From IMG/VR virus record IMGVR_UViG_3300033066_001173, positions 4,880-68,879 of that record: DNA of 64,000 bases; one strand, given 5' to 3'. Positions 50,305-64,000 of the stretch are shown here, in pieces (the first letter of the stretch is position 1; every line of letters begins with the position of its first letter). The position numbers were made by a program, and so were the translations under genes. The notes under the pieces are model-generated. The model saw nothing but the letters and a program-made list of their open reading frames with translations. It was not told the DNA's origin and did not search any database. Source of the DNA: a virus (Duplodnaviria; Caudoviricetes).

Positions 50305-50652
50305 ATGGCAACACTTTTATGGCTTGATGACGCAAGAAATCCACACGAAAACGACTGGCTTGTTTTTAGTCCAATAGAACAACCATTTGAAACTATTTGG
50401 GTAAAGTCTTATCAAGAGTTTAAAGAATATATTTATGATAATGGATTGCCAACAGCTATTTGCTTTGACCATGATTTAGGAGAGCCGATAGGTGAAGATG
50501 AAAAAACAGGGATGGATTGTGCTAAATGGTTAGTTTGGTGGTGTCAAGAACATAATCTCAAATTACCATTGTATAATATACAGTCAGCTAATCCAGTTGG
50601 AAAAGACAATATAGACAGTCTGTTGAAAAATTTCATTAAACATTGCAACTAA
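50305..50652 (+). CDS. Cyclic-phosphate-processing receiver-like domain protein
   Basis: LWLDDARNP, WVKSYQEF, ICFDHDLG, TGMDCAKWLV, QSANPVGKDNI. Confidence 0.8.
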   Translation: MATLLWLDDARNPHENDWLVFSPIEQPFETIWVKSYQEFKEYIYDNGLPTAICFDHDLGEPIGEDEKTGMDCAKWLVWWCQEHNLKLPLYNIQSANPVGKDNIDSLLKNFIKHCN

Positions 50653-53111: not shown

Positions 53112-53368
53112 AAACAGTTAAAAATAGGATTATCATCCTGCCAGACGAGGTGTCTAATAAAACAGACTCTGGATTTATTCTTCCAGACGAGGCAAAGCAG
53201 CCCCCTATGTATGGATCTGTAGTTGACGCAGGTCCAGACTGCAAGTATGTAAAGAACGGAGATAAGATAATATTCCCGAAGGGCTACGGATCAAAATTAG
53301 ATATAAACAAAGTGGAGCACATTATAATGTCCGAAGAGGATGCGTTCTGCGTAATTGAATACAAATGA
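53084..53368 (+). CDS. groES: Co-chaperonin GroES
   Basis: NRIIILP, KTDSGFILPDEAK, GSVVDAGP, VKNGDKIIF..YG. Confidence 0.9.
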   Translation: MVEQEMHVVKTVKNRIIILPDEVSNKTDSGFILPDEAKQPPMYGSVVDAGPDCKYVKNGDKIIFPKGYGSKLDINKVEHIIMSEEDAFCVIEYK

Positions 53369-54930
53369 AAACAGCGAAGAAAATTTACTTTGACAGCGAG
53401 TCAATACTCAAACTAAAAGAGGGTGTTGATATTTTAGCGAATGCAGTATCAAGCACCCTTGGTCCGAAAGGAAGGGTTGCAATACTTCAAAATCCTTATG
53501 GATCTCCAATTCTAACAAAGGATGGGGTAACGGTTTCCCGGCATATTAATTTATCTGACCCTATGCAAGATATGGGGGCTTCTTTAATTAAAGACGTAGC
53601 CGAAAAGACTGTTTCTCAATGCGGGGATGGTACGACTACTTCATGCATACTCGCACAGGATATTCTTGAAAGAGGGGTTAAGGCAATTCAGGAAGGAAAG
53701 AATCCAATAGAACTTAGAAAAGAAATGGACGAGGCTGTTGAGGTGGCTATTAAGTACATAAAAGAAAACGCAATACCGGTTGGAGAGGATTGGGATAAAG
53801 TTAAAAACATTGCTATTATTTCTACTAACAACGATATCCAATTGGGAACCCTAATTTCTGATACACTAAAGAAGGTTGGAAAGCATGGTGCCTTAACTGT
53901 AAGTACAGGAACTGGCCTAGAAACTACAGTAGATTATGTGGAAGGCATGCATTTTGACAAAGGATTTATTTCTCCTTACTTTATTACTAACCCGGACAAA
54001 AATACAGCTGAATTAGATAATCCTTACATACTTATTTTCGATAAAGACATTGAGGATTTAGCGGAGCTATTGCCAATAATAGAGCAGTGCTATAAGCAAA
54101 AAAAGCAGTTACTGATCATTGCAAATGATGTTATTGGGTCAGCATTATCTGGGTTGGTAGTTAACAAGGTTCAGCAAGGATTCCCTGTGTGCGCTGTATA
54201 CGCCCCAAGCAGACTCAATGAAAGAAAAGAGATATTTCAGGACATAGCCACAGTAACCGGGGCTTCAATTGTATCTGAGGAGTTTGGAAAGAAGCTTAAG
54301 CAGGTTGTAATATCTGATTTAGGGCAATGCGAAAAGGTAATTGTTACGCACAACAATACTTTGATAATCGGAGGAAAAGGAAGTAGGGCTAAAATATCTG
54401 ATAGAGAGCTACAGTTGGAGGCTCAAATTAATCTGACAGAGCAGGAGGAATTAAAAGAAGGTTTAAGGGTTAGATTAGCTAAAATGGCATCTGGGGTAGC
54501 TATAATTAAAGTTGGAGGCAAAACGGATGCAGAGGCAAAAGAAAGGAAGGACAGGGTGGACGATGCAGTTGGCGCAACCAAGTCTGCTATTAAGGAGGGT
54601 ATTTTAGCTGGCGGCGGAAAGTCTTATATAAACGCAGCAACCGAGGTGTACAAAATTAAAACAGAGGGGGCAGACTTAATTTCAAAGTCTTTATTTTCTC
54701 CAGCAAAAAAACTACAGCTAAACTGTGGGATACTAATTGACGATGTTAAATATGAAAGCGACCCAAGTATTGGATTCAACGCTTTGACAGGAAAAAATGA
54801 AGACCTTATAGCTTCAGGAGTAATAGATTCTGCTATGGTTTTAAGATGTTGTCTTGAAAATGCAGCCAGTATAGTTGGATTAATGCTGACCAGTAATGCT
54901 TCTATAATCTACGAAAATCTACCTGAATAA
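53365..54930 (+). CDS. groEL: Chaperonin GroEL
   Basis: TLGPKGR, TKDGVTV, GDGTTT, EGMHFDKGFISPYF, RLAKMASGVAIIKVGG; lacks the C-terminal GGM tail. Confidence 0.97.
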   Translation: MKTAKKIYFDSESILKLKEGVDILANAVSSTLGPKGRVAILQNPYGSPILTKDGVTVSRHINLSDPMQDMGASLIKDVAEKTVSQCGDGTTTSCILAQDILERGVKAIQEGKNPIELRKEMDEAVEVAIKYIKENAIPVGEDWDKVKNIAIISTNNDIQLGTLISDTLKKVGKHGALTVSTGTGLETTVDYVEGMHFDKGFISPYFITNPDKNTAELDNPYILIFDKDIEDLAELLPIIEQCYKQKKQLLIIANDVIGSALSGLVVNKVQQGFPVCAVYAPSRLNERKEIFQDIATVTGASIVSEEFGKKLKQVVISDLGQCEKVIVTHNNTLIIGGKGSRAKISDRELQLEAQINLTEQEELKEGLRVRLAKMASGVAIIKVGGKTDAEAKERKDRVDDAVGATKSAIKEGILAGGGKSYINAATEVYKIKTEGADLISKSLFSPAKKLQLNCGILIDDVKYESDPSIGFNALTGKNEDLIASGVIDSAMVLRCCLENAASIVGLMLTSNASIIYENLPE

Positions 54931-55778: not shown

Positions 55779-56669
55779 ATGAACGAAAACAAAACACTTA
55801 CAGTATCAGGATTATTCTCTCAGAAGAATGTTCAAAAGAAGTTTCAGGAGATTCTTGGAAGTAAATCGCAGGGGTTCATCACTAGCGTTTTGCAAATAAC
55901 ATCAGGTAATTCTTATTTGGCGAACGCAGATCCAATGAGTATTTACAACGCAGCCGCAACTGCAGCAACATTAGACCTGCCGATAAATAACAACTTAGGA
56001 TTTGCATGGATAGTTCCTTACAAAGGCAAGGCGCAGTTCCAAATTGGTTGGAAAGGTTTTGTTCAGTTGGCCCAAAGAACCGGGCAGTATTTAAAAATTA
56101 ACGTAGTAGAGGTGTACGCCAATCAATTCAAATCATGGAACTCATTAACAGAGGATTTGGATGCTGATTTTTCATTAGACGGCGCTGGTGATGTTGTTGG
56201 ATATTGCGCTTATTTCAAATTGCTAAATGGATTTGATAAGACTTCTTATTGGAGTAAAAGCAAAGTTGACTCGCATGCTAAGAAATATTCACAAGCTTAC
56301 GCTAGCGAAAAAGGTGTAAGCCCTTGGAAGGATAAAGACCAGTACCATGAAATGGCCAAGAAGACGGTTCTAAAAAACACACTAAACAAGTGGGGTATTT
56401 TATCTATTGAAATGCAGAAAGCGGTTTTGACAGATCAATCTGTTATTAACAACCCAGATACTGTTGATGTAACATACGTTGATCATAATGAAACAGAAAC
56501 ATCCTCAGACAAATCAGCTTCGATTAAAAATCTTGCAGAGGATTCCGCAAATAAAATCAAGAGAGGAAAAGTTATGAGCAGAATAACCACCCTAAAGGCA
56601 AAAGAGAATAGGACTGAGGATGAGTCATTAGAGATTGAAATGCTAGAGGCTGAACTTAAAGGTATGTAG
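55779..56669 (+). CDS. recT: RecT/Bet-family single-strand annealing protein
   Basis: ATLDLPINNNLGFAWIVPY, AQFQIGWKGFVQLAQRTGQY, EMAKKTV. Confidence 0.93.
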   Translation: MNENKTLTVSGLFSQKNVQKKFQEILGSKSQGFITSVLQITSGNSYLANADPMSIYNAAATAATLDLPINNNLGFAWIVPYKGKAQFQIGWKGFVQLAQRTGQYLKINVVEVYANQFKSWNSLTEDLDADFSLDGAGDVVGYCAYFKLLNGFDKTSYWSKSKVDSHAKKYSQAYASEKGVSPWKDKDQYHEMAKKTVLKNTLNKWGILSIEMQKAVLTDQSVINNPDTVDVTYVDHNETETSSDKSASIKNLAEDSANKIKRGKVMSRITTLKAKENRTEDESLEIEMLEAELKGM

Positions 56670-56814
56670 ATATCACAGCCAATAAGATCGTTCGTGTAAT
56701 GCGTCCTAATGAGGCAGATTTCTATTTAACATAATACATGAACCGCTTAATTTGTTAAATTTCGATGTTTATAACTTTTGGTGTGGATTCTGAGGAATTG
56801 ATATATTTGTAATT

Positions 56815-56890
56815 GCAACCGCTTTATGCGATTGTTTCTCTTCGTTTCTTTTTGTTCTAGTTAGTCCGGTTTAATAGCCGGACTTTCTAT
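56815..56890 (+). ncRNA. Candidate small RNA with its own promoter and terminator
   Basis: TTTG-N21-TATATTTG (56777-56809), a 5' hairpin, a CU-rich stretch, then the terminator stem AGTCCGG/CCGGACT; no ORF. Confidence 0.5.
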
Positions 56891-56891
56891 T

Positions 56892-57113
56892 TTAGTTGAG
56901 TTTGTAATTAGGGAGGTCTGCTTTAATCCTTCTGCTCCTTTTGGGAAATTTCATCATTCTTTCTTGGGACAGAAGCTGTTCTAAAATGTACAAACAAATA
57001 TCGAATCCAACAACGCCATCTTTTGGAATACCGGTTACTTTGGATACTTTATTGATGTGCGCAACAACTATTTCCGGAGGAATTCTGTCTACTATCCTAG
57101 AAATGGGTTTCAT
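56892..57113 (-). CDS. Hypothetical early protein
   Basis: 73 aa with an A/C-rich leader and an upstream promoter-like box. Confidence 0.55.
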   Translation of the reverse strand: MKPISRIVDRIPPEIVVAHINKVSKVTGIPKDGVVGFDICLYILEQLLSQERMMKFPKRSRRIKADLPNYKLN

Positions 57114-57215
57114 AAATTAGGGGTTTTGTGTTTTTAGTTTCGGTATATCCAAGTTACTTATCAAATATAGGATATAAAAAATAAGGTTTTTATGATGTGG
57201 AAGTTAAATGTTAAC

Positions 57216-57286
57216 AAATAGAGTGCGGGGCGAAATAACCACTGGTCTGTAGAAACCGAAAATCCTCCCCGCCTTTTTCTCTATTT
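57216..57286 (-). ncRNA. Candidate structured intergenic RNA
   Basis: Stems AAATAGAG/CTCTATTT, GCGGGG/CCCCGC and an inner GGTTT/AGACC that pairs only on the minus strand. Confidence 0.45.
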
Positions 57287-57321
57287 CAATAATCAACGAG
57301 CCAAGTTACTTAAAGTTTTGT

Positions 57322-57504
57322 TCATTTTTTTATGTAAGCTGAATTATATTTTAGAGCGCTTTCGCTTATTATTGTTAGTCTGCCCTTTTGAAATTGAGCC
57401 TCTGCTTTTAATTGGGATTTCTTAAACTGCATTAATCCAGCCGGACCTCTTAATATTTCTTGAGACTTTCCATTATACCAATAGATTAAAATATATGTTT
57501 TCAT
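57322..57504 (-). CDS. Hypothetical early protein
   Basis: 60 aa with an A-rich leader. Confidence 0.6.
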   Translation of the reverse strand: MKTYILIYWYNGKSQEILRGPAGLMQFKKSQLKAEAQFQKGRLTIISESALKYNSAYIKK

Positions 57505-57509
57505 GGTAT

Positions 57510-57662
57510 TTATTTTTGGTTTATATGTATTTTAGCTAGCTCCAATATCAACGGCAAAAGTATTTCAGTTGGCTGTTGGTTTATGTTAACGCATTTTGCC
57601 ACAGCTGTTGCGGCGTCTACTATTGAGTTCCATTTTTTTAATGATTCTTCTCGCTGATTCAT
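57510..57662 (-). CDS. Small early protein (50 aa, not in the ORF track)
   Basis: MNQREESLKKWNSIVDAATAVAKCVNINQQPTEILLPLILELAKIHINQK; fills the gap exactly. Confidence 0.55.
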   Translation of the reverse strand: MNQREESLKKWNSIVDAATAVAKCVNINQQPTEILLPLILELAKIHINQK

Positions 57663-57673
57663 ATAGTTTGGTT

Positions 57674-57877
57674 TTAAAGCGTTGAAATATTGCTGTTAGC
57701 CCAGGATAATATATCATTTAAGTGAGTAGCATCCTTAAAACAGGTGCCTATTAATGGTAATTTATTCGACCCCTTAAATATATGAGCGAACAGCCCGTAA
57801 TTATCATTTGTTATCCTTTGACTTATTTTAACTCTGTAAGTTACGTCTCTGTGTTTTATTATTCTTACGGTTTTCAT
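57674..57877 (-). CDS. Hypothetical early protein downstream of hammerhead 2
   Basis: 67 aa. Confidence 0.6.
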   Translation of the reverse strand: MKTVRIIKHRDVTYRVKISQRITNDNYGLFAHIFKGSNKLPLIGTCFKDATHLNDILSWANSNISTL

Positions 57878-57892
57878 GGTGCGTTGGGATTT

Positions 57893-57944
57893 GGTTTATA
57901 CTCCCCTAAGGGAGTTTCACGGATTAACCGATCTTCAGTAAACC
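57893..57944 (-). ncRNA. Type I hammerhead ribozyme, copy 2
   Basis: GGUUUA-CUGAAGA-U CGG uuaau CCG U-GAAA-C UCCC uuag GGGA G-UA/-UAAACC. Core and all three stems present; predicted cut between 57899 and 57898; U-U at the base of stem II is atypical. Confidence 0.8.
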
Positions 57945-57952
57945 TTTTAAAA

Positions 57953-58309
57953 TTAATACTGTATTTTTTCTATTTTACCCCCAAACATTCTGGCTTTTTT
58001 AATTGCCTCTCCCCTGGTATATTCGAACACTTCATTGTATGGCTCTCCAAGCCTCCCTAAATAGCCACCGAATATTTGATTTTTTTTAGCCGTATGCCCT
58101 TTTAATAAACGTACACGGTACATATCTTTTGGTTTAAATTCTGTTATTCCTGCGGCTTCTAATAATTCAATATCATTTGCATCAATAAATTTAGATAACG
58201 ATTGAAGTTCAATTAATTCGCCGTAGCTTATGCATTGGCCTCTTAGTTCTTTTCTAAGATATTCTAGCCTGTTTTGTATTTTTCTAGTATTAATTTTTGT
58301 TGTTTTCAT
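57953..58309 (-). CDS. Hypothetical early protein flanked by two hammerheads
   Basis: 118 aa; RLEYLRKEL...ISYGELIELQSL...DIELLEAAG. Confidence 0.75.
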   Translation of the reverse strand: MKTTKINTRKIQNRLEYLRKELRGQCISYGELIELQSLSKFIDANDIELLEAAGITEFKPKDMYRVRLLKGHTAKKNQIFGGYLGRLGEPYNEVFEYTRGEAIKKARMFGGKIEKIQY

Positions 58310-58324
58310 GTTATTAGGTTTTTT

Positions 58325-58381
58325 GGGTTTGACGGGGGAGCTATTCCCCCGTTTCGGCTATTTAAGCCTCTTCAGAAACCC
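58325..58381 (-). ncRNA. Type I hammerhead ribozyme, copy 1
   Basis: GGGUUU-CUGAAGA-GGCU uaaau AGCC-GAAA-C GGGGGA auagc UCCCCC G-UC/-AAACCC. Canonical core with a GUC site; predicted cut between 58331 and 58330. Confidence 0.92.
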
Positions 58382-58383
58382 TT

Positions 58384-59253
58384 TTACCATTTTAGTTGTA
58401 TTGCTAGAGCCTTTATTTCGCTAATCTTAATAACGTGGCACCCTATTGTTATTTTTTCAGTATCCAGGCTCTTTACTTCATAATCCATTATCTTGTATTT
58501 GCACTCTCCTTCGCACCCTCCCAGTACAAGTGTATTAAGAATCCAAGTAAAAGCCCTTTTTGCTATTTCGGTCGGTATTTCTACGCCTTGACTAGTTTCT
58601 ACTCTTTTGCCATTGTGCCTTAAATAATCAACATTCTCGTTTCGGCTGTATAGCCTTTCTCCTTTGCCGGCTCTCCATTTATCTAGGCTTTCAAAGTGCA
58701 TTTTTAATGCTTCCTTTTCTCTTTTTATCCTTTCTTTGTTAATTCGTGCACTTTCTTTCTTTAAATATTCAGAGTATTTTCCACTCTCTGCTTTTTTAAT
58801 TATGTTTTTAATGTTCGCAGGAACCTTGATACCAAAAAATTTGCAGTACTTGATACATTCATTGAAAAAGTAGTTTGCCGGATTAATATATTTCTCAGGC
58901 TTTTTAGCCGTTGCCAGTCCGCTTAATTCTCCTTTTATTGCATCAAAGTATTTCTCCAGGTTAATTATGTGTCCTTCGCCTGGGCAATAGCACAGTATTT
59001 TATTGAGGTGATTTATAGACCTGTCGACTATTCCTATTTGTTTTGCTGTGGTATTGCCATATTTACGGAAAGTAAAAAGAACAGCATTGTCACCTCTTTT
59101 ATTAGTAACATGTTTTGCTATTGGGAAATGCGCCCCGTAGCTGAAGATGGTATTACCTGTGAAATAAAAGTTTCCGCCGGCGTTTCTTCCCTCTTGTTGA
59201 ATTTGATTAGCCCACATGTGAGCTACATCATCCTTTTTAAATACTAGTTTCAT
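58384..59253 (-). CDS. Conserved-looking phage early protein
   Basis: 289 aa; IFSYGAHFPIA...YGNTTAKQ motif; function unknown. Confidence 0.7.
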   Translation of the reverse strand: MKLVFKKDDVAHMWANQIQQEGRNAGGNFYFTGNTIFSYGAHFPIAKHVTNKRGDNAVLFTFRKYGNTTAKQIGIVDRSINHLNKILCYCPGEGHIINLEKYFDAIKGELSGLATAKKPEKYINPANYFFNECIKYCKFFGIKVPANIKNIIKKAESGKYSEYLKKESARINKERIKREKEALKMHFESLDKWRAGKGERLYSRNENVDYLRHNGKRVETSQGVEIPTEIAKRAFTWILNTLVLGGCEGECKYKIMDYEVKSLDTEKITIGCHVIKISEIKALAIQLKW

Positions 59254-59279
59254 GGTTTTGGGTTTTAAGGGTTAATATT

Positions 59280-59322
59280 ATTTTGTATTGGGTACTTCCT
59301 TTCGGTTTCCCCTCCACAAAAC
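59280..59322 (-). ncRNA. Intergenic hairpin with loop-E (bulged-G) motif and GAAA tetraloop
   Basis: UUUUGU..GGG-GAAA-CC-GAAA-GG-AAGUA-CCC..ACAAAA. Confidence 0.6.
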
Positions 59323-59326
59323 GTCT

Positions 59327-59719
59327 TTATACTGTTTCTTTGTTGTTTATCAATTCAATTAAGCTATTTATATCTAATTCCTCGTTTACGTACTCATCCA
59401 ACGCTGCATAAGCTAACTGGCTAATATTATTGATCTCTCCAAAATTATCAAAACAGGTAAAATCAGTAGAATTCAATTCCATTGCTATCTGAAAACAAGT
59501 ATAATAATAAATACATGCGTTATCTATGTCGCTATTTATATACTCTCTTATTCCGTCTTCATCCTCAATATTGCCGTTCTTAATCTCATTGATAATATCT
59601 AACTCCAAAGAGTTGATAAAATCATATTTATTAAATTCTGCTTTTTTGTTATTTCTAACTTCCTGTAATTGGCTTTCTAATCTCTCGATTTGTTGCGCCA
59701 TTTCTTTTTTAGTTTTCAT
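59327..59719 (-). CDS. Ocr-like acidic protein (putative DNA mimic, anti-restriction)
   Basis: IKNGNIEDEDGIREYINSDIDNACIYY aligns by eye with T7 gp0.3 [25 protein letters not shown]/E-rich; near the start of the early operon. Confidence 0.55.
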   Translation of the reverse strand: MKTKKEMAQQIERLESQLQEVRNNKKAEFNKYDFINSLELDIINEIKNGNIEDEDGIREYINSDIDNACIYYYTCFQIAMELNSTDFTCFDNFGEINNISQLAYAALDEYVNEELDINSLIELINNKETV

Positions 59720-59745
59720 TTTGCTAGTTTTTTTAAGTTATTAGG

Positions 59746-59886
59746 TTAGTTTAATCCTATTAAATTAGTTAGTGTTTCAGTACTACCGAACAGATGCCCG
59801 GTTAATACGTGGATGACTCCTTTAAATTCGAGTTCGTAGGTTCCTAGAACCTCGCTGAACTCTTTTGGGTTTAGATTGTTTAACAT
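59746..59886 (-). CDS. Small ORF at the head of the early operon (may be non-coding)
   Basis: 46 aa from ATG 59886; overlaps a hairpin and a duplicated leader. Confidence 0.35.
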   Translation of the reverse strand: MLNNLNPKEFSEVLGTYELEFKGVIHVLTGHLFGSTETLTNLIGLN

Positions 59887-59908
59887 GTTTTTTGGGTTTA
59901 GATTGTTT
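59863..59908. repeat. 19-nt direct repeat
   Basis: TTTTGGGTTTAGATTGTTT at 59863-59881 and 59890-59908. Confidence 0.9.
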
Positions 59909-59916
59909 CTACGCCT

Positions 59917-59947
59917 CAAAGATATGTCAACACTTGCAATAATGCAA
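59917..59947 (-). promoter_or_regulatory. Early promoter overlapped by a TTGCA-N4-TGCAA palindrome
   Basis: Minus strand TTGCATTATTGCAA-N9-TATCTTTG, the same geometry as 7723-7753. Confidence 0.75.
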
Positions 59948-60131
59948 GTATGTGAATGCATTGATATTACTGATGTTTGACAAAAGCAGATAAAACTCCG
60001 TGCTATCTAAATGTGTTGATTTTATTGATATCTCAGTGTGTATTGCAAATATGCAAGTGAAGTACAAATAAATCTTTTGCAAAAAATGCAAATAACCGCT
60101 GTATGTGCAGTAATATCAACGAAAAATAATT

Positions 60132-60383
60132 TTATTTATTCTCTAAAATATACTCCATGTGTAGTTTTTGGAAGTAGGAAAAGCCTAGTATGTGAGAATC
60201 TGTTGGTATTAAATACCTCCATCCAAACGTAGTATAATAAAAGAATAGTAAGTATTTCTTGTTGCTGTTGGATAGTATGGCATAGCCGGAGGCGTCGGTA
60301 AGCATTCCAAAGCCATCCACCTCCATTTGTTCCTTAAAGTCCTTTGCGGCTACCCTTTCAATACATATTCTTATATCGATCAT
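60132..60383 (-). CDS. Hypothetical protein
   Basis: 83 aa; ATGA-coupled to the HTH gene. Confidence 0.45.
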   Translation of the reverse strand: MIDIRICIERVAAKDFKEQMEVDGFGMLTDASGYAILSNSNKKYLLFFYYTTFGWRYLIPTDSHILGFSYFQKLHMEYILENK

Positions 60384-60592
60384 CGTATTATCTTTGAAAA
60401 CGTTATGTTATACCCCAGGGCTTCGATCAGCTCAATCAGCTTTGGAGCCATTAGGGCGTTTCTTCCCTTCATTGTGGCACAATAGTGCTGTGGACTCATC
60501 CCGACTATTCTAGCTAGCTTACGCTGAGTTATATTAAGTTCCTTGCGTGTATTCTCTATCTCTATTAGTACGTTTTTATATCCCATTGTCAA
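60380..60592 (-). CDS. XRE/Cro-family HTH regulator
   Basis: RKELNITQRKLARIVGMSPQHY...KGR...LIELIEALGY. Confidence 0.85.
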   Translation of the reverse strand: MTMGYKNVLIEIENTRKELNITQRKLARIVGMSPQHYCATMKGRNALMAPKLIELIEALGYNITFSKIIR

Positions 60593-60655
60593 GATTTATT
60601 ATATAACCCCTACTTTAGGGCTACAAAGTAACTTAATTTTATTATTCAAGCCAAA

Positions 60656-61135
60656 TTAAAGTATCTTTCTAAAGCCCATTAAACCGTATATCTCTTTTAA
60701 CTCTCTATCAATGCGATCAGTGAAGTAATTAGCTTTATACCATTTGAGCATTAACCGGCTATACTCTTCGCAGATCAAATAAGCCTTTGGGTCTAATATG
60801 TATCGCTTGGAAATGACCCCGCGTTTATTGCGCTTAAATTCTTTTATGATTAAATACCCCTTTTCAACCAGTCGACCCATCATTTCATATGTTCTGTTAG
60901 ACCTGTATTTATGTCCCAGCCATATACTAACCCGCTCCCCTGTTACATAGTTATACCGCACCCCCTCCCGAAGGGAGTCAAGCAAGTCAACCGAAGCCGA
61001 TATAATCTTTATTTCATGATCGCATAAATTAAATTTATCCCGCAATCCTTCAAACACTTTATATTGATTAGCTATGTAAGAAATATGAAACGATCTAAAA
61101 GCGTTAACAACCTCCAAACTATGTCTTGTCTTCAT
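60656..61135 (-). CDS. Winged-helix-like DNA-binding protein
   Basis: TYEMMGRLVEKGYLII...KRYILDPKA. Confidence 0.55.
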   Translation of the reverse strand: MKTRHSLEVVNAFRSFHISYIANQYKVFEGLRDKFNLCDHEIKIISASVDLLDSLREGVRYNYVTGERVSIWLGHKYRSNRTYEMMGRLVEKGYLIIKEFKRNKRGVISKRYILDPKAYLICEEYSRLMLKWYKANYFTDRIDRELKEIYGLMGFRKIL

Positions 61136-61486
61136 TTTTTAAGCGATTTTAAATGTTTTTAATGTATTACAGGTGAAAGATAGTGAAATGAATGGTAGCT
61201 ATTATTGCTTATTCTTTCTTGTTTAAACGAATTTAGGCGAATTATCTCGAATATTACCATGTCGACCATCCAAAATAAATAAAAGGTCGTTAAATCTAGC
61301 GTAAATAAGCTTAATCAATAGCGTTATTCTTGTCGGCTTACTCTGTCTTATAAAAATAATTATGTTAAATAGACCTCGTGGCATGCGATGTATATGACAC
61401 TTTGACCCCTCCCCTACCCTATCGATATTTTGCTTTAATGTTAATTTATCCCTCATTTTTATGTTATTATGCACATCAATTTATAT

Positions 61487-61723
61487 TTAGGATTTGATAA
61501 ATAGGTTATCTATCGTGTTCGTGATTAGGTTTGCATGCAATCGTTTGTGAATCAGAACCATAGAATACATGGGTACACGGTGCCGGAAAGTCGTTTTTGG
61601 TCTGAGTTTGGCGTAGGCGTCTGAATATCGGTAATCACCCACCTTCATTCGCTCGCACCTCCCTATGCATTTCTTACACAAGAATGCCATTATCACACCG
61701 TATAGACAAATGATTATCAGCAT
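61487..61723 (-). CDS. Possible hypothetical protein
   Basis: CKKC..RC motif; start and frame uncertain. Confidence 0.3.
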   Translation of the reverse strand: MLIIICLYGVIMAFLCKKCIGRCERMKVGDYRYSDAYAKLRPKTTFRHRVPMYSMVLIHKRLHANLITNTIDNLFIKS

Positions 61724-61774
61724 ATTAGTGTTTTTTACCTATTAAAAGGTTCATTGTTTGTGTGGTTTGTATTT

Positions 61775-61990
61775 TCAAAAATTCGAAGAGATTGGGCGGA
61801 TCATTTGTAGTGTTTTAAGGGCCATAAGTATTTCTTTTATTTTCTGTTTGCATTCTGTGGTGTTTTCTTTTAGTATTACGCATGGAGTAACCTTTTGTTC
61901 TTTAAATGAATCTAGCATGTAGTCATTTTGTTTGTCGTACATGCTTAGGGTATCTAGTTCTTTTTTTAGTGTTAAGATTGCGTAGTTCAT
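61775..61990 (-). CDS. Hypothetical protein
   Basis: 71 aa; ATGA-coupled. Confidence 0.55.
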   Translation of the reverse strand: MNYAILTLKKELDTLSMYDKQNDYMLDSFKEQKVTPCVILKENTTECKQKIKEILMALKTLQMIRPISSNF

Positions 61991-62679
61991 TTTTCTAATA
62001 GATTTTCTGTTTTATCGTTTACGGAGTAGAAGAAGTCTATGTTGGTTATTTTTTCTAGGGAGTCAATTGAGATTTTGTTGTTTTGGAGTGGGTCTTGGGA
62101 TTCTTTATTTTCGAAGATATAGGCCCAGGATTTAGTTATTTCCTTGTTGATGAATGTGGCGTAGAAGTATTTTGGTATAGATATGCCTCCTGGGATTCTT
62201 TTGTTGTTTTCTCCCAGTATTGTTCCCTTTACGATGTAAAGAGCCTCCTCTTCAATTGCGGTAGTTCTTATGAAAGATTCAAGATGCTTCCAGATGCCTC
62301 TATTAAACTTCGGTGCCTGAGGAGAAATATTGGTCATTACGAAGGTTTCATCCATTGCTTTTTGTGAGTGATCCATGTCTTCTGCTGGGCATAGGTGTCC
62401 TCTATCGTAACCTGTTCCTGCGTAGTTATCGCTTGATGGAGTACAACTATTTAAAAGATCGTCTTCGTGGAAGTTGTTTCTTCTTTCTGCTTGTTCTTCT
62501 AGAACTTGATCTTTGGTTAATTTATAGTAAACCCATACAGGGCAATTATGCCTACAGTCGTAGGCTATTTTAAAATACCTGTGATCTAATAAAGATTCTG
62601 TAACGTCTATGCTTGGTAGATATTCTTTCTCTGGAGGCTGAAAGCAGAGTAACAATGGGATTAAATAAAGTATCTTCAT
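61987..62679 (-). CDS. Exported DNA/RNA non-specific endonuclease (NucA/Serratia type)
   Basis: YDRGHLCPA, FVMTNISPQ..KFNRGIWKHLE; N-terminal signal-like MKILYLIPLLLCF. Confidence 0.93.
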   Translation of the reverse strand: MKILYLIPLLLCFQPPEKEYLPSIDVTESLLDHRYFKIAYDCRHNCPVWVYYKLTKDQVLEEQAERRNNFHEDDLLNSCTPSSDNYAGTGYDRGHLCPAEDMDHSQKAMDETFVMTNISPQAPKFNRGIWKHLESFIRTTAIEEEALYIVKGTILGENNKRIPGGISIPKYFYATFINKEITKSWAYIFENKESQDPLQNNKISIDSLEKITNIDFFYSVNDKTENLLEK

Positions 62680-62846
62680 TTTTTTGTTATTGCTTTAGCG
62701 AATGCTTTGTGGTACTCTATGTCGACTTTTGGAACTTCAATCATAGGGTATTTATGCTTCATTCTCCAGTAGTTTGTTTCAACTAACGTATCGTATTCTT
62801 TCTGAGAAAGATCGTAGTATTCTTTGTATTTTTCACTGTTATCCAT
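62676..62846 (-). CDS. Small protein (56 aa, not in the ORF track)
   Basis: MDNSEKYKEYYDLSQKEYD...; overlaps both neighbours at start/stop junctions. Confidence 0.55.
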   Translation of the reverse strand: MDNSEKYKEYYDLSQKEYDTLVETNYWRMKHKYPMIEVPKVDIEYHKAFAKAITKK

Positions 62847-63154
62847 TAGGCCTGGGCAATTGGTTTTTTTAATCCTGTTTTTATTGTTTCTTCCGGAGAC
62901 ATTTTTAAAACTTCATCGAATATAGGTCCGGCTATGTCCATAGGAATTTCGCTAGTAGCTAATACTGTTTGTATAAACTTTCCTTGAATTTCTCCTGCTT
63001 TTTTCAAGATAGAGTGGACAAACTTAGTTCGATCTTTATAGTCGTGCTTTTTATACTCTGCATGCTTTGGATCCAGCGCAGCTAGCATTAATACCACATG
63101 GAAGTAATCCCTTCTTATTTCTAGCAAGACGGACTTGAGGTTTTCGTTTGTCAT
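62846..63154 (-). CDS. Hypothetical protein
   Basis: 102 aa; translationally coupled. Confidence 0.55.
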   Translation of the reverse strand: MTNENLKSVLLEIRRDYFHVVLMLAALDPKHAEYKKHDYKDRTKFVHSILKKAGEIQGKFIQTVLATSEIPMDIAGPIFDEVLKMSPEETIKTGLKKPIAQA

Positions 63155-63528
63155 TGTTTTATTTTTGATTTATAATAATCTATTTTATCGATCAGCTCTA
63201 GTCGCTCTACTTTGTAGAAGAAATGCCTTTTGCACCTTAGCTTTTCCGAATAGCCTTCTGCGTGCTTTTTGTCTATTTCCTCTGCGAATTTAATAAGATT
63301 GCCAGAGTCAAACTGGTTGCAATTTATACACTGTAGATAAGCGTTTGTCTCATCCCACCTTGTAGCATACACCATCCTTGGCACATAGTGTCCGCAATCC
63401 ATTTTTCTGTAATCTCCAACCTTAGAACAGGTAATACACTTTCCTTTCCCGTTTTCGTCAGAATCCCTTTGTCGTATAAACAAAGAAAAAACACGGTCTA
63501 GCTCTTTTATTAATTCTGATAATTTCAA
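63151..63528 (-). CDS. ninG: NinG/Rap-like recombination endonuclease
   Basis: LDRVFSLFIRQRD, CITC, MDCGHY, TRWDETN..LQCINCN. Confidence 0.88.
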   Translation of the reverse strand: MKLSELIKELDRVFSLFIRQRDSDENGKGKCITCSKVGDYRKMDCGHYVPRMVYATRWDETNAYLQCINCNQFDSGNLIKFAEEIDKKHAEGYSEKLRCKRHFFYKVERLELIDKIDYYKSKIKQ

Positions 63529-63779
63529 AATGGAACGTCTTTGTCTTTTATTACTTCAATCGATACACTTATCCTTCCAGTTAATTGCTGTAATTGATAC
63601 ACAGATAATTTATCTCTTTTACACCGGTAGCCAATTTGATTTCCTACAGTTATTGGCGTCAATTTCTTAAATCCAAAATACCTTAAATCACTTTTAGATG
63701 GAAGGCGATACAATTCCTTTTCAAACCAGCCATATTGAAACCCCTTGTGCTCGAATCCATATTTAAAATAATACATCAT
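63525..63779 (-). CDS. Hypothetical protein
   Basis: FKYGF...YGWFEKELYRLP. Confidence 0.6.
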   Translation of the reverse strand: MMYYFKYGFEHKGFQYGWFEKELYRLPSKSDLRYFGFKKLTPITVGNQIGYRCKRDKLSVYQLQQLTGRISVSIEVIKDKDVPF

Positions 63780-63863
63780 TGTGTGCAAATGTGAGTATAA
63801 TTATTTATATATACAAGTGTTTTGTAAAATATATTTACCACATTGGTTTCGTATGTCTGCGAG

Positions 63864-64000
63864 TTACCTGCAATGCCTTTCGACACTTGCGATAGTATCG
63901 TGTATTGCTCCACCGTGAGAAAACAAACACACTTTTTCGACAGTAAAGCCACGACCTGCACCCATTGTATTTGAATGGTAGCCAAACGTAATTACTTTAC
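63864..64000 (-). CDS. C-terminus of a putative phage DNA methyltransferase-like protein (partial)
   Basis: Frame from 63998 reads KVITFGYHSNTMGAGRGF...HGGAIHDTIASVER; the N-terminus lies outside the window. Confidence 0.55.
   Translation of the reverse strand, partial: KVITFGYHSNTMGAGRGFTVEKVCLFSHGGAIHDTIASVERHCR

Follow-up and report, generated by a model that had tools for sequence, protein, structure and literature searches.

Introduction

Self-cleavage of a hammerhead ribozyme leaves a 5′-OH and a 2′,3′-cyclic phosphate end. Two successive intergenic gaps in the genome of an uncultured bacteriophage raise the question of whether they encode such ribozymes and, if so, what these would do for the genes behind them. 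The DNA analysed here (the window) is a stretch of 64,000 nt from an IMG/VR virus record of 68,879 bp, with an estimated completeness of 96%, which encodes terminase, portal, DnaB and GroEL-like genes. A first-pass annotation of this DNA had read the gaps as two hammerheads that cut an early polycistronic transcript into uniform single-gene mRNAs. For the two copies, denoted HH-A and HH-B in the following, the monocistronic-mRNA idea is the standing hypothesis of the field. Perreault et al. (2011, PLoS Comput Biol, PMC3088659) proposed that long transcripts are divided by phage hammerheads into mRNAs of one gene each, and described in vitro cleavage of other clusters of such ribozymes within polycistronic RNAs of ~2 kb; a 2019 review (PMC6765202) repeated the hypothesis as unproven.

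Structure and position of the two hammerheads

The elements of the region, in the order of transcription, are the following.

58384..59253, minus strand: 289-aa gene (phrog_7247) upstream of HH-A; stop codon at 58386-58384, 2 nt before HH-A
58381-58325, minus strand: HH-A, type I hammerhead; predicted cut after C17, between 58331 and 58330
58310..58330, minus strand: leader after the HH-A cut, 21 nt, A/C-rich, without Shine-Dalgarno motif
57953..58309, minus strand: 118-aa gene between both ribozymes; ATG at 58309, stop codon at 57955-57953
57944-57893, minus strand: HH-B, type I hammerhead of the U10.1-U11.1/A17 subclass; predicted cut after A17, 57899/57898
57878..57898, minus strand: leader after the HH-B cut, 21 nt, without Shine-Dalgarno motif
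57674..57877, minus strand: 67-aa gene 3′ of HH-B; ATG at 57877

Direct reading of the sequence bore out the first-pass annotation in the type, place, coordinates and spacings of two complete hammerheads in minus-strand gaps. Both are assigned to type I, as stem I is open and stems II and III are closed by loops. Each ribozyme fills one intergenic gap, and the copies lie 432 nt apart on the coding strand with one gene between them. The annotated start at 2–8 nt after a stop codon corresponds to 2 nt for HH-A and 8 nt for HH-B, each counted from its own upstream gene, and the annotated 21 nt from predicted cut to ATG was recovered for both copies (58330 to 58309 and 57898 to 57877, respectively). 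Stem I contributes its 3′ strand as the first 6 nt of the HH-A leader. Taken together, the arrangement is that of a clustered gene-flanking layout, i.e. at least two hammerheads in gene orientation within successive gaps of a phage gene block.

HH-A is composed of a stem I of 6 bp, the CUGAAGA segment, a stem II of 4 bp with a 5-nt loop, GAA, and a stem III of 8 bp that opens with the A15.1-U16.1 pair, followed by C17 (GUC). In HH-B, a stem I of 6 bp and CUGAAGA are followed by a stem II consisting of a U·U apposition and 3 bp with a 5-nt loop, GAA, and a stem III of 6 bp; here the A15.1-U16.1 pair precedes A17 (GUA). The core (C3 U4 G5 A6 N7 G8 A9 and G12 A13 A14) is complete in both copies. 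N7 is A in either case, likewise in 10/113 members of the phage hammerhead family described below, and the cleavage base after A15.1-U16.1 is a non-G residue (the H17 rule), namely C in HH-A and A in HH-B. Stems II and III differ between the copies and stem I is shifted by one base, with pairing kept in both, which confirms the annotated combination of unlike stems and retained pairing.

The minimum-energy fold of HH-A is the three-helix hammerhead, with z between -3.7 and -4.2. For HH-B, the hammerhead is the minimum-energy fold in an 83-nt context, with a stability that is not significant (z -1.1), and folding of the 52 nt alone resulted in an alternative fold. The 10.1-11.1 pair is G-C in HH-A and U·U in HH-B, the latter without the G10.1 metal ligand. 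Owing to the absence of this ligand and to a fold that is marginally favoured, HH-B may cut slowly.

Detection with covariance models

The first-pass annotation had proposed a search with Rfam hammerhead models, the outcome of which was mixed. At gathering score, neither copy was matched by the families RF00163, RF03152, RF00008 or RF02276. The sole weak Rfam match is that of HH-A to RAGATH-1-hammerhead (RF03152), with 30 bits versus a threshold of 56.3 bits, while Hammerhead_1 (RF00163) returned nothing even at E<=10. HH-A can be aligned with the RAGATH-1 model over the full length and has its catalytic core and stem III/cut-site layout, but the 5′ hairpin of the model is not formed in HH-A and HH-B is unmatched. 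The catalytic core and the stem III/cut-site layout are common to Hammerhead_1 as well. Ten other loci with unmistakable family members are likewise missed by Rfam, so that the lack of a match does not count against the motifs. A permissive Rfam scan of 56600-64000 revealed no other ribozyme class in the operon.

Because Rfam is blind to obvious relatives, an independent test was built in the form of R1, a covariance model of 33 equal-length hammerheads from other IMG/VR phages in a gapless alignment free of window sequence. Members from other phages, all equal in length, were chosen since MAFFT misaligned stem III of HH-A and HH-B. The training members were picked for pairing, so that pair counts among them are partly circular and are not leaned on here. 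R1 scored HH-A with 58.5 bits (E 6e-15) and HH-B with 44.7 bits (E 1e-10), and at E<=10 no further matches were observed, whether the two strands of the window or those of the complete genome were searched. The scores of other family members (E<=0.001) range from 26 to 83 bits. A simple descriptor scan of the 68.9-kb genome gave HH-A and HH-B and no further sites. HH-A and HH-B are more than chance matches. A pattern derived from the stem I flank common to both copies was discarded, as it returned chance matches alone.

Family features and the U·U subclass

Scanning IMG/VR with a pattern of the core and a GGC/GCC stem II resulted in >120 loci, and 102/133 matches are complete type I hammerheads. 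A very large phage hammerhead family, as sampled by this one narrow scan, escapes current Rfam thresholds. Multiple hammerheads (2-6) per locus are present in 30/115 family loci. In contigs L031, L103, L099, L094 and L059, between 5 and 7 type I hammerheads are crowded into 2-4 kb, a density far above that of the window.

Three unpaired features recur across the family. Stem I is directly preceded by an A in 97% of members and directly followed by AA (93% and 76%, respectively), and loop II has the form U-N-A-N-U. HH-A and HH-B each carry all three. These unpaired residues probably form the contact between stem I and loop II that natural hammerheads need for fast cutting at cellular Mg.

The U·U apposition at the base of stem II had been named in the first-pass annotation as a ground for doubt about the second copy. 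A pattern scan for the U·U form gave 21 IMG/VR loci, of which 15 are complete type I hammerheads that vary in stems I and III. In the aligned family set, A17 and an A2.1-U1.1 pair are found in 17/17 U·U members, as in HH-B, and A17 in 15/108 of the G-C members; these figures, like those of the spacing survey below, are biased by the search patterns used. The stem I of HH-B recurs in one U·U member and its stem II hairpin in another. Moreover, U10.1-U11.1 hammerheads are natural and active, showing the most cleavage of any mismatch at this position (Perreault et al. 2011, PMC3088659). The recurrence of the U·U form and this earlier report identify HH-B as a member of a maintained subclass rather than a decayed copy, and the doubt is largely removed, although HH-B may still cut more slowly than HH-A. 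The link between U·U and A17 could have arisen by common descent or because the two features co-vary structurally within the core. For reference, the U·U hammerhead loci are L031 and L132-L151 (e.g. L145:7953-8008), plus the window at 57893-57944.

Gene context

Both hammerheads are located in a minus-strand gene run from ~64000 to 56892, which consists mostly of small genes without assigned function. Pfam and PHROGs searches provided no function for the hammerhead-flanked genes. Between 60095 and 56592, no terminator-like sites were found on the coding strand. A polycistronic precursor is plausible given this result and the location of the motifs on the coding strand. Promoter scans of the sigma-70 type and of the Bacteroidota -33/-7 type were both at chance level.

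Relatives of this phage were sought at several levels. A blastn search of the region against GenBank phages matched nothing, and close relatives were not found by a peptide-pattern search with the portal protein. The same phage is present in sequencing runs from three studies, and other contigs in these runs bear similar hammerhead cores. The homologues found for the 118-aa gene (L001, L002) are distant and correspond to its C-terminal part alone, with no hammerhead seen in their vicinity. Homologues of the genes downstream of the ribozymes were not found travelling with a similar ribozyme.

Three further genes of the window are recorded here. A 115-aa gene at 50305-50652 (+) matches cREC_REC (PF20274, cyclic-phosphate processing receiver domain; E 2.4e-21), i.e. 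a domain predicted to act on cyclic-phosphate ends is encoded in a phage with predicted cyclic-phosphate-making ribozymes. A Cpn60/GroEL-family chaperonin gene is located at 53365-54930 (+; PF00118, E 2e-57) and a gene for a non-specific DNA/RNA endonuclease at 61987-62679 (-; PF01223, E 7e-47).

The slot behind the 289-aa gene in related phages

Homologues of the 289-aa gene were retrieved from 34 IMG/VR loci. At 7/34 of these, the 5′ end of a type I hammerhead lies at the stop codon or in the final few codons, and an A/C-rich leader of 18-23 nt follows the cut; the hammerhead subclass at this slot varies between phages. At the other 27/34 loci the slot is without ribozyme, being either minimal (1-34 nt) or filled with a different hairpin. 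The ribozyme is therefore recurrent at the slot but dispensable. Comparison of the loci suggests that the hammerhead and other slot elements may be interchangeable. Among the slots of L152-L185, an unrelated hairpin-containing insert of ~66-72 nt was noted in e.g. L170-L174, L152 and L159.

Ribozyme-less genes in this phage group show A/C-rich leaders of repeated AAACC/UUAAAACC-like units, seen upstream of 289-aa homologues (L153-L169) and in the window at 59254-59280. The 3′ strand of stem I (UUAACC, UAAACC, AAACCC) resembles this AAACC/UUAAAACC leader unit, so that the strand may double as leader sequence. A third gap, upstream of the 289-aa gene, holds a hairpin with internal loops (59254-59330, -), which was considered as a processing element and rejected: it is not significantly stable (z -1.35) and lacks conservation upstream of 289-aa homologues.

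Spacing between predicted cut and start codon

The distance from predicted cut to ATG was compiled for 167 unique family members from 115 loci, this window being excluded.

All members: median 27 nt, IQR 23-33
Leaders with a Shine-Dalgarno-like motif: median 27 nt, IQR 25-30
Leaders without a Shine-Dalgarno-like motif: median 21 nt, IQR 19-25.5

Leaders with and without the motif differ in this distance (Mann-Whitney p 4e-8). About half of the family ribozymes begin -6 to +10 nt from the upstream stop codon. Where >50 nt of slack is available upstream, the median from cut to ATG is still 28 nt, which indicates that the ribozyme is anchored to the start codon behind it. Still, mere compaction of the genome could account for part of this tight spacing.

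As to the two copies in the window, two random leaders without a Shine-Dalgarno motif are equal in length 7% of the time, which makes the agreement of 21 nt in both a slightly uncommon outcome at most. Nor is a leader of 21 nt a peculiarity of this phage. The first-pass annotation, which had emphasised a distance of exactly 21 nt and suggested that related genomes be checked for conserved spacing, is accordingly upheld in part: the value holds for HH-A and HH-B and a regular short spacing extends across the family, but 18-23 nt at the slot in related phages shows that it is not a fixed rule. Its interpretation otherwise stands with regard to real, rightly placed type I motifs and a plausible polycistronic precursor; the early timing, the independence from host RNases and the effect of the 5′-OH ends are conjectural parts of it.

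Proposed mechanism and alternatives

The motif, its fold, its membership of the family, its placement and the family-wide spacing are observed. We consider it probable that HH-A and HH-B are genuine phage-family hammerheads that cut themselves out of one multi-gene RNA, each being a 5′-UTR element of the gene behind it. HH-A and HH-B would be transcribed within a single leftward multi-gene RNA, and each ribozyme would fold once the 3′ strand of its stem I is made and then self-cut after position 17. The upstream piece would carry the compact ribozyme fold and a 2′,3′-cyclic phosphate at its end, and the downstream gene would begin with a 5′-OH, followed by a short leader of 21 nt that is unstructured and A/C-rich; by providing this end and leader the ribozyme would act as the 5′-UTR element of that gene. 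The adjoining cistrons would be separated and the downstream one given a single defined short leader, similar to the engineered RiboJ insulator. Cleavage in vivo, co-transcription and a benefit to the phage are what we infer.

A different purpose of the same cleavage would be dosage control via RNA decay, with the 5′-OH end leading to faster or slower decay of the downstream piece and different levels being set for the genes of one operon. Self-cleavage necessarily yields 5′-OH and cyclic-phosphate ends, and the product of the glmS ribozyme is targeted by RNase J1 in Bacillus. The two subclasses present in the window, G-C/C17 in HH-A and U·U/A17 in HH-B, could moreover differ in their predicted cutting rate, and differing stabilities are named as a possible outcome in the 2019 review (PMC6765202). 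However, neither a ligand-sensing domain nor any other sign of regulation was seen, and the anchoring to the start codon across the family is explained no less well by a function in translation or in defining the leader. We regard decay control as unlikely. Even less probable, by a wide measure, is an excision of the 432-nt cassette 58330-57899 followed by circularisation, or a unit of ribozyme, leader and small gene that is a mobile module aiding its own spread. The 5′-OH and cyclic-phosphate ends of the fragment are ligation substrates, and the patchy distribution of the ribozyme (7/34 loci) with different subclasses at the same slot among related phages is in line with mobility. Paired in register by hand, however, the excised ends match at 4/6 stem I positions, so that a good hammerhead for self-ligation is not rebuilt; spliced or circular products of clustered phage hammerheads have been sought and none found (Perreault et al. 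2011, PMC3088659), and the downstream genes lack homologues found travelling with a similar ribozyme.

The view that either motif, or both, is an inactive remnant or a chance look-alike draws on the missing Rfam match at curated thresholds, on the fold of HH-B, which is not significantly stable, and on the use of a 10.1-11.1 mismatch as a ground for rejecting candidates by Perreault et al. (2011, PMC3088659). HH-B would be the likelier candidate of the two on account of the U-U mismatch beside its core. Against this, the R1 E values of 6e-15 and 1e-10 stand out in 128 kb of searched strand with nothing else detected; the U·U form is shared by 15 other complete hammerheads whose stems differ, A17 accompanies it in every one of the 17 aligned members, and the same 2011 study describes the variant as natural and active. 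Decay or chance as the origin of either motif appears highly improbable, and we retain genuine, self-cutting hammerheads as the preferred reading.

Relation to known systems and significance

The functional part of the preferred reading has an engineered counterpart in the RiboJ-type synthetic ribozyme insulators, reportedly introduced by Lou et al. in 2012. In these insulators a hammerhead just ahead of the ribosome-binding region removes variable upstream RNA and leaves a constant short 5′ leader, as the phage copies would do. RiboJ differs in its origin, having been built from a type III hammerhead of a plant satellite RNA with an added hairpin. Natural phage hammerheads may have an insulating role.

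Among natural systems, the closest likeness is to the phage hammerheads of Perreault et al. (2011, PMC3088659) in ribozyme class, topology, coding-strand intergenic placement, several copies flanking single genes, and the proposed cutting of polycistronic phage RNA; the natural U10.1-U11.1 variant was also reported there, and the flanked genes were of unknown or anti-restriction function. What differs here are the new sequences, their source in an uncultured 69-kb IMG/VR phage, and leaders without a Shine-Dalgarno motif. In fungal dsRNA viruses, small intergenic UTRs are taken up by a type I hammerhead whose helix III is long and whose cut lies a few nt ahead of the next start codon; the 5′ ends were confirmed by RACE (NAR 2026, PMC13725137). 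These are eukaryotic RNA viruses for which a link to cap-independent translation has been proposed (PMC13725137), whereas the present case concerns a DNA phage of bacteria.

HH-A and HH-B add no new kind of element, the gene-flanking layout having been described since 2011, and the finding is an ordinary one as far as this window by itself is concerned. The U·U-A17 link and the statistics of the spacing from cut to ATG were not found stated in the literature examined and go slightly beyond it. The regular order in which a stop codon, a ribozyme, a leader of fixed short length and a start codon follow one another offers a testable handle on what genomic hammerheads do in phages, a question under discussion since 2011, and in particular on whether the ribozyme-made 5′ end sets the translation or stability of the next gene. 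A tentative and unlikely extension is that the distance from cut to ATG follows the translation-start mode of the host, with ~21 nt in leaders without and ~27 nt in leaders with a Shine-Dalgarno motif, and that the ribozyme-made 5′-OH end is part of the start signal of internal genes. Bacteroidota do not use Shine-Dalgarno pairing. If this extension is true, the 5′-OH end would be a natural RiboJ-like or 5′-end-dependent loading device and the ribozyme more than a by-product of compact genomes, with the effect being greatest in hosts without Shine-Dalgarno pairing, such as Bacteroidota.
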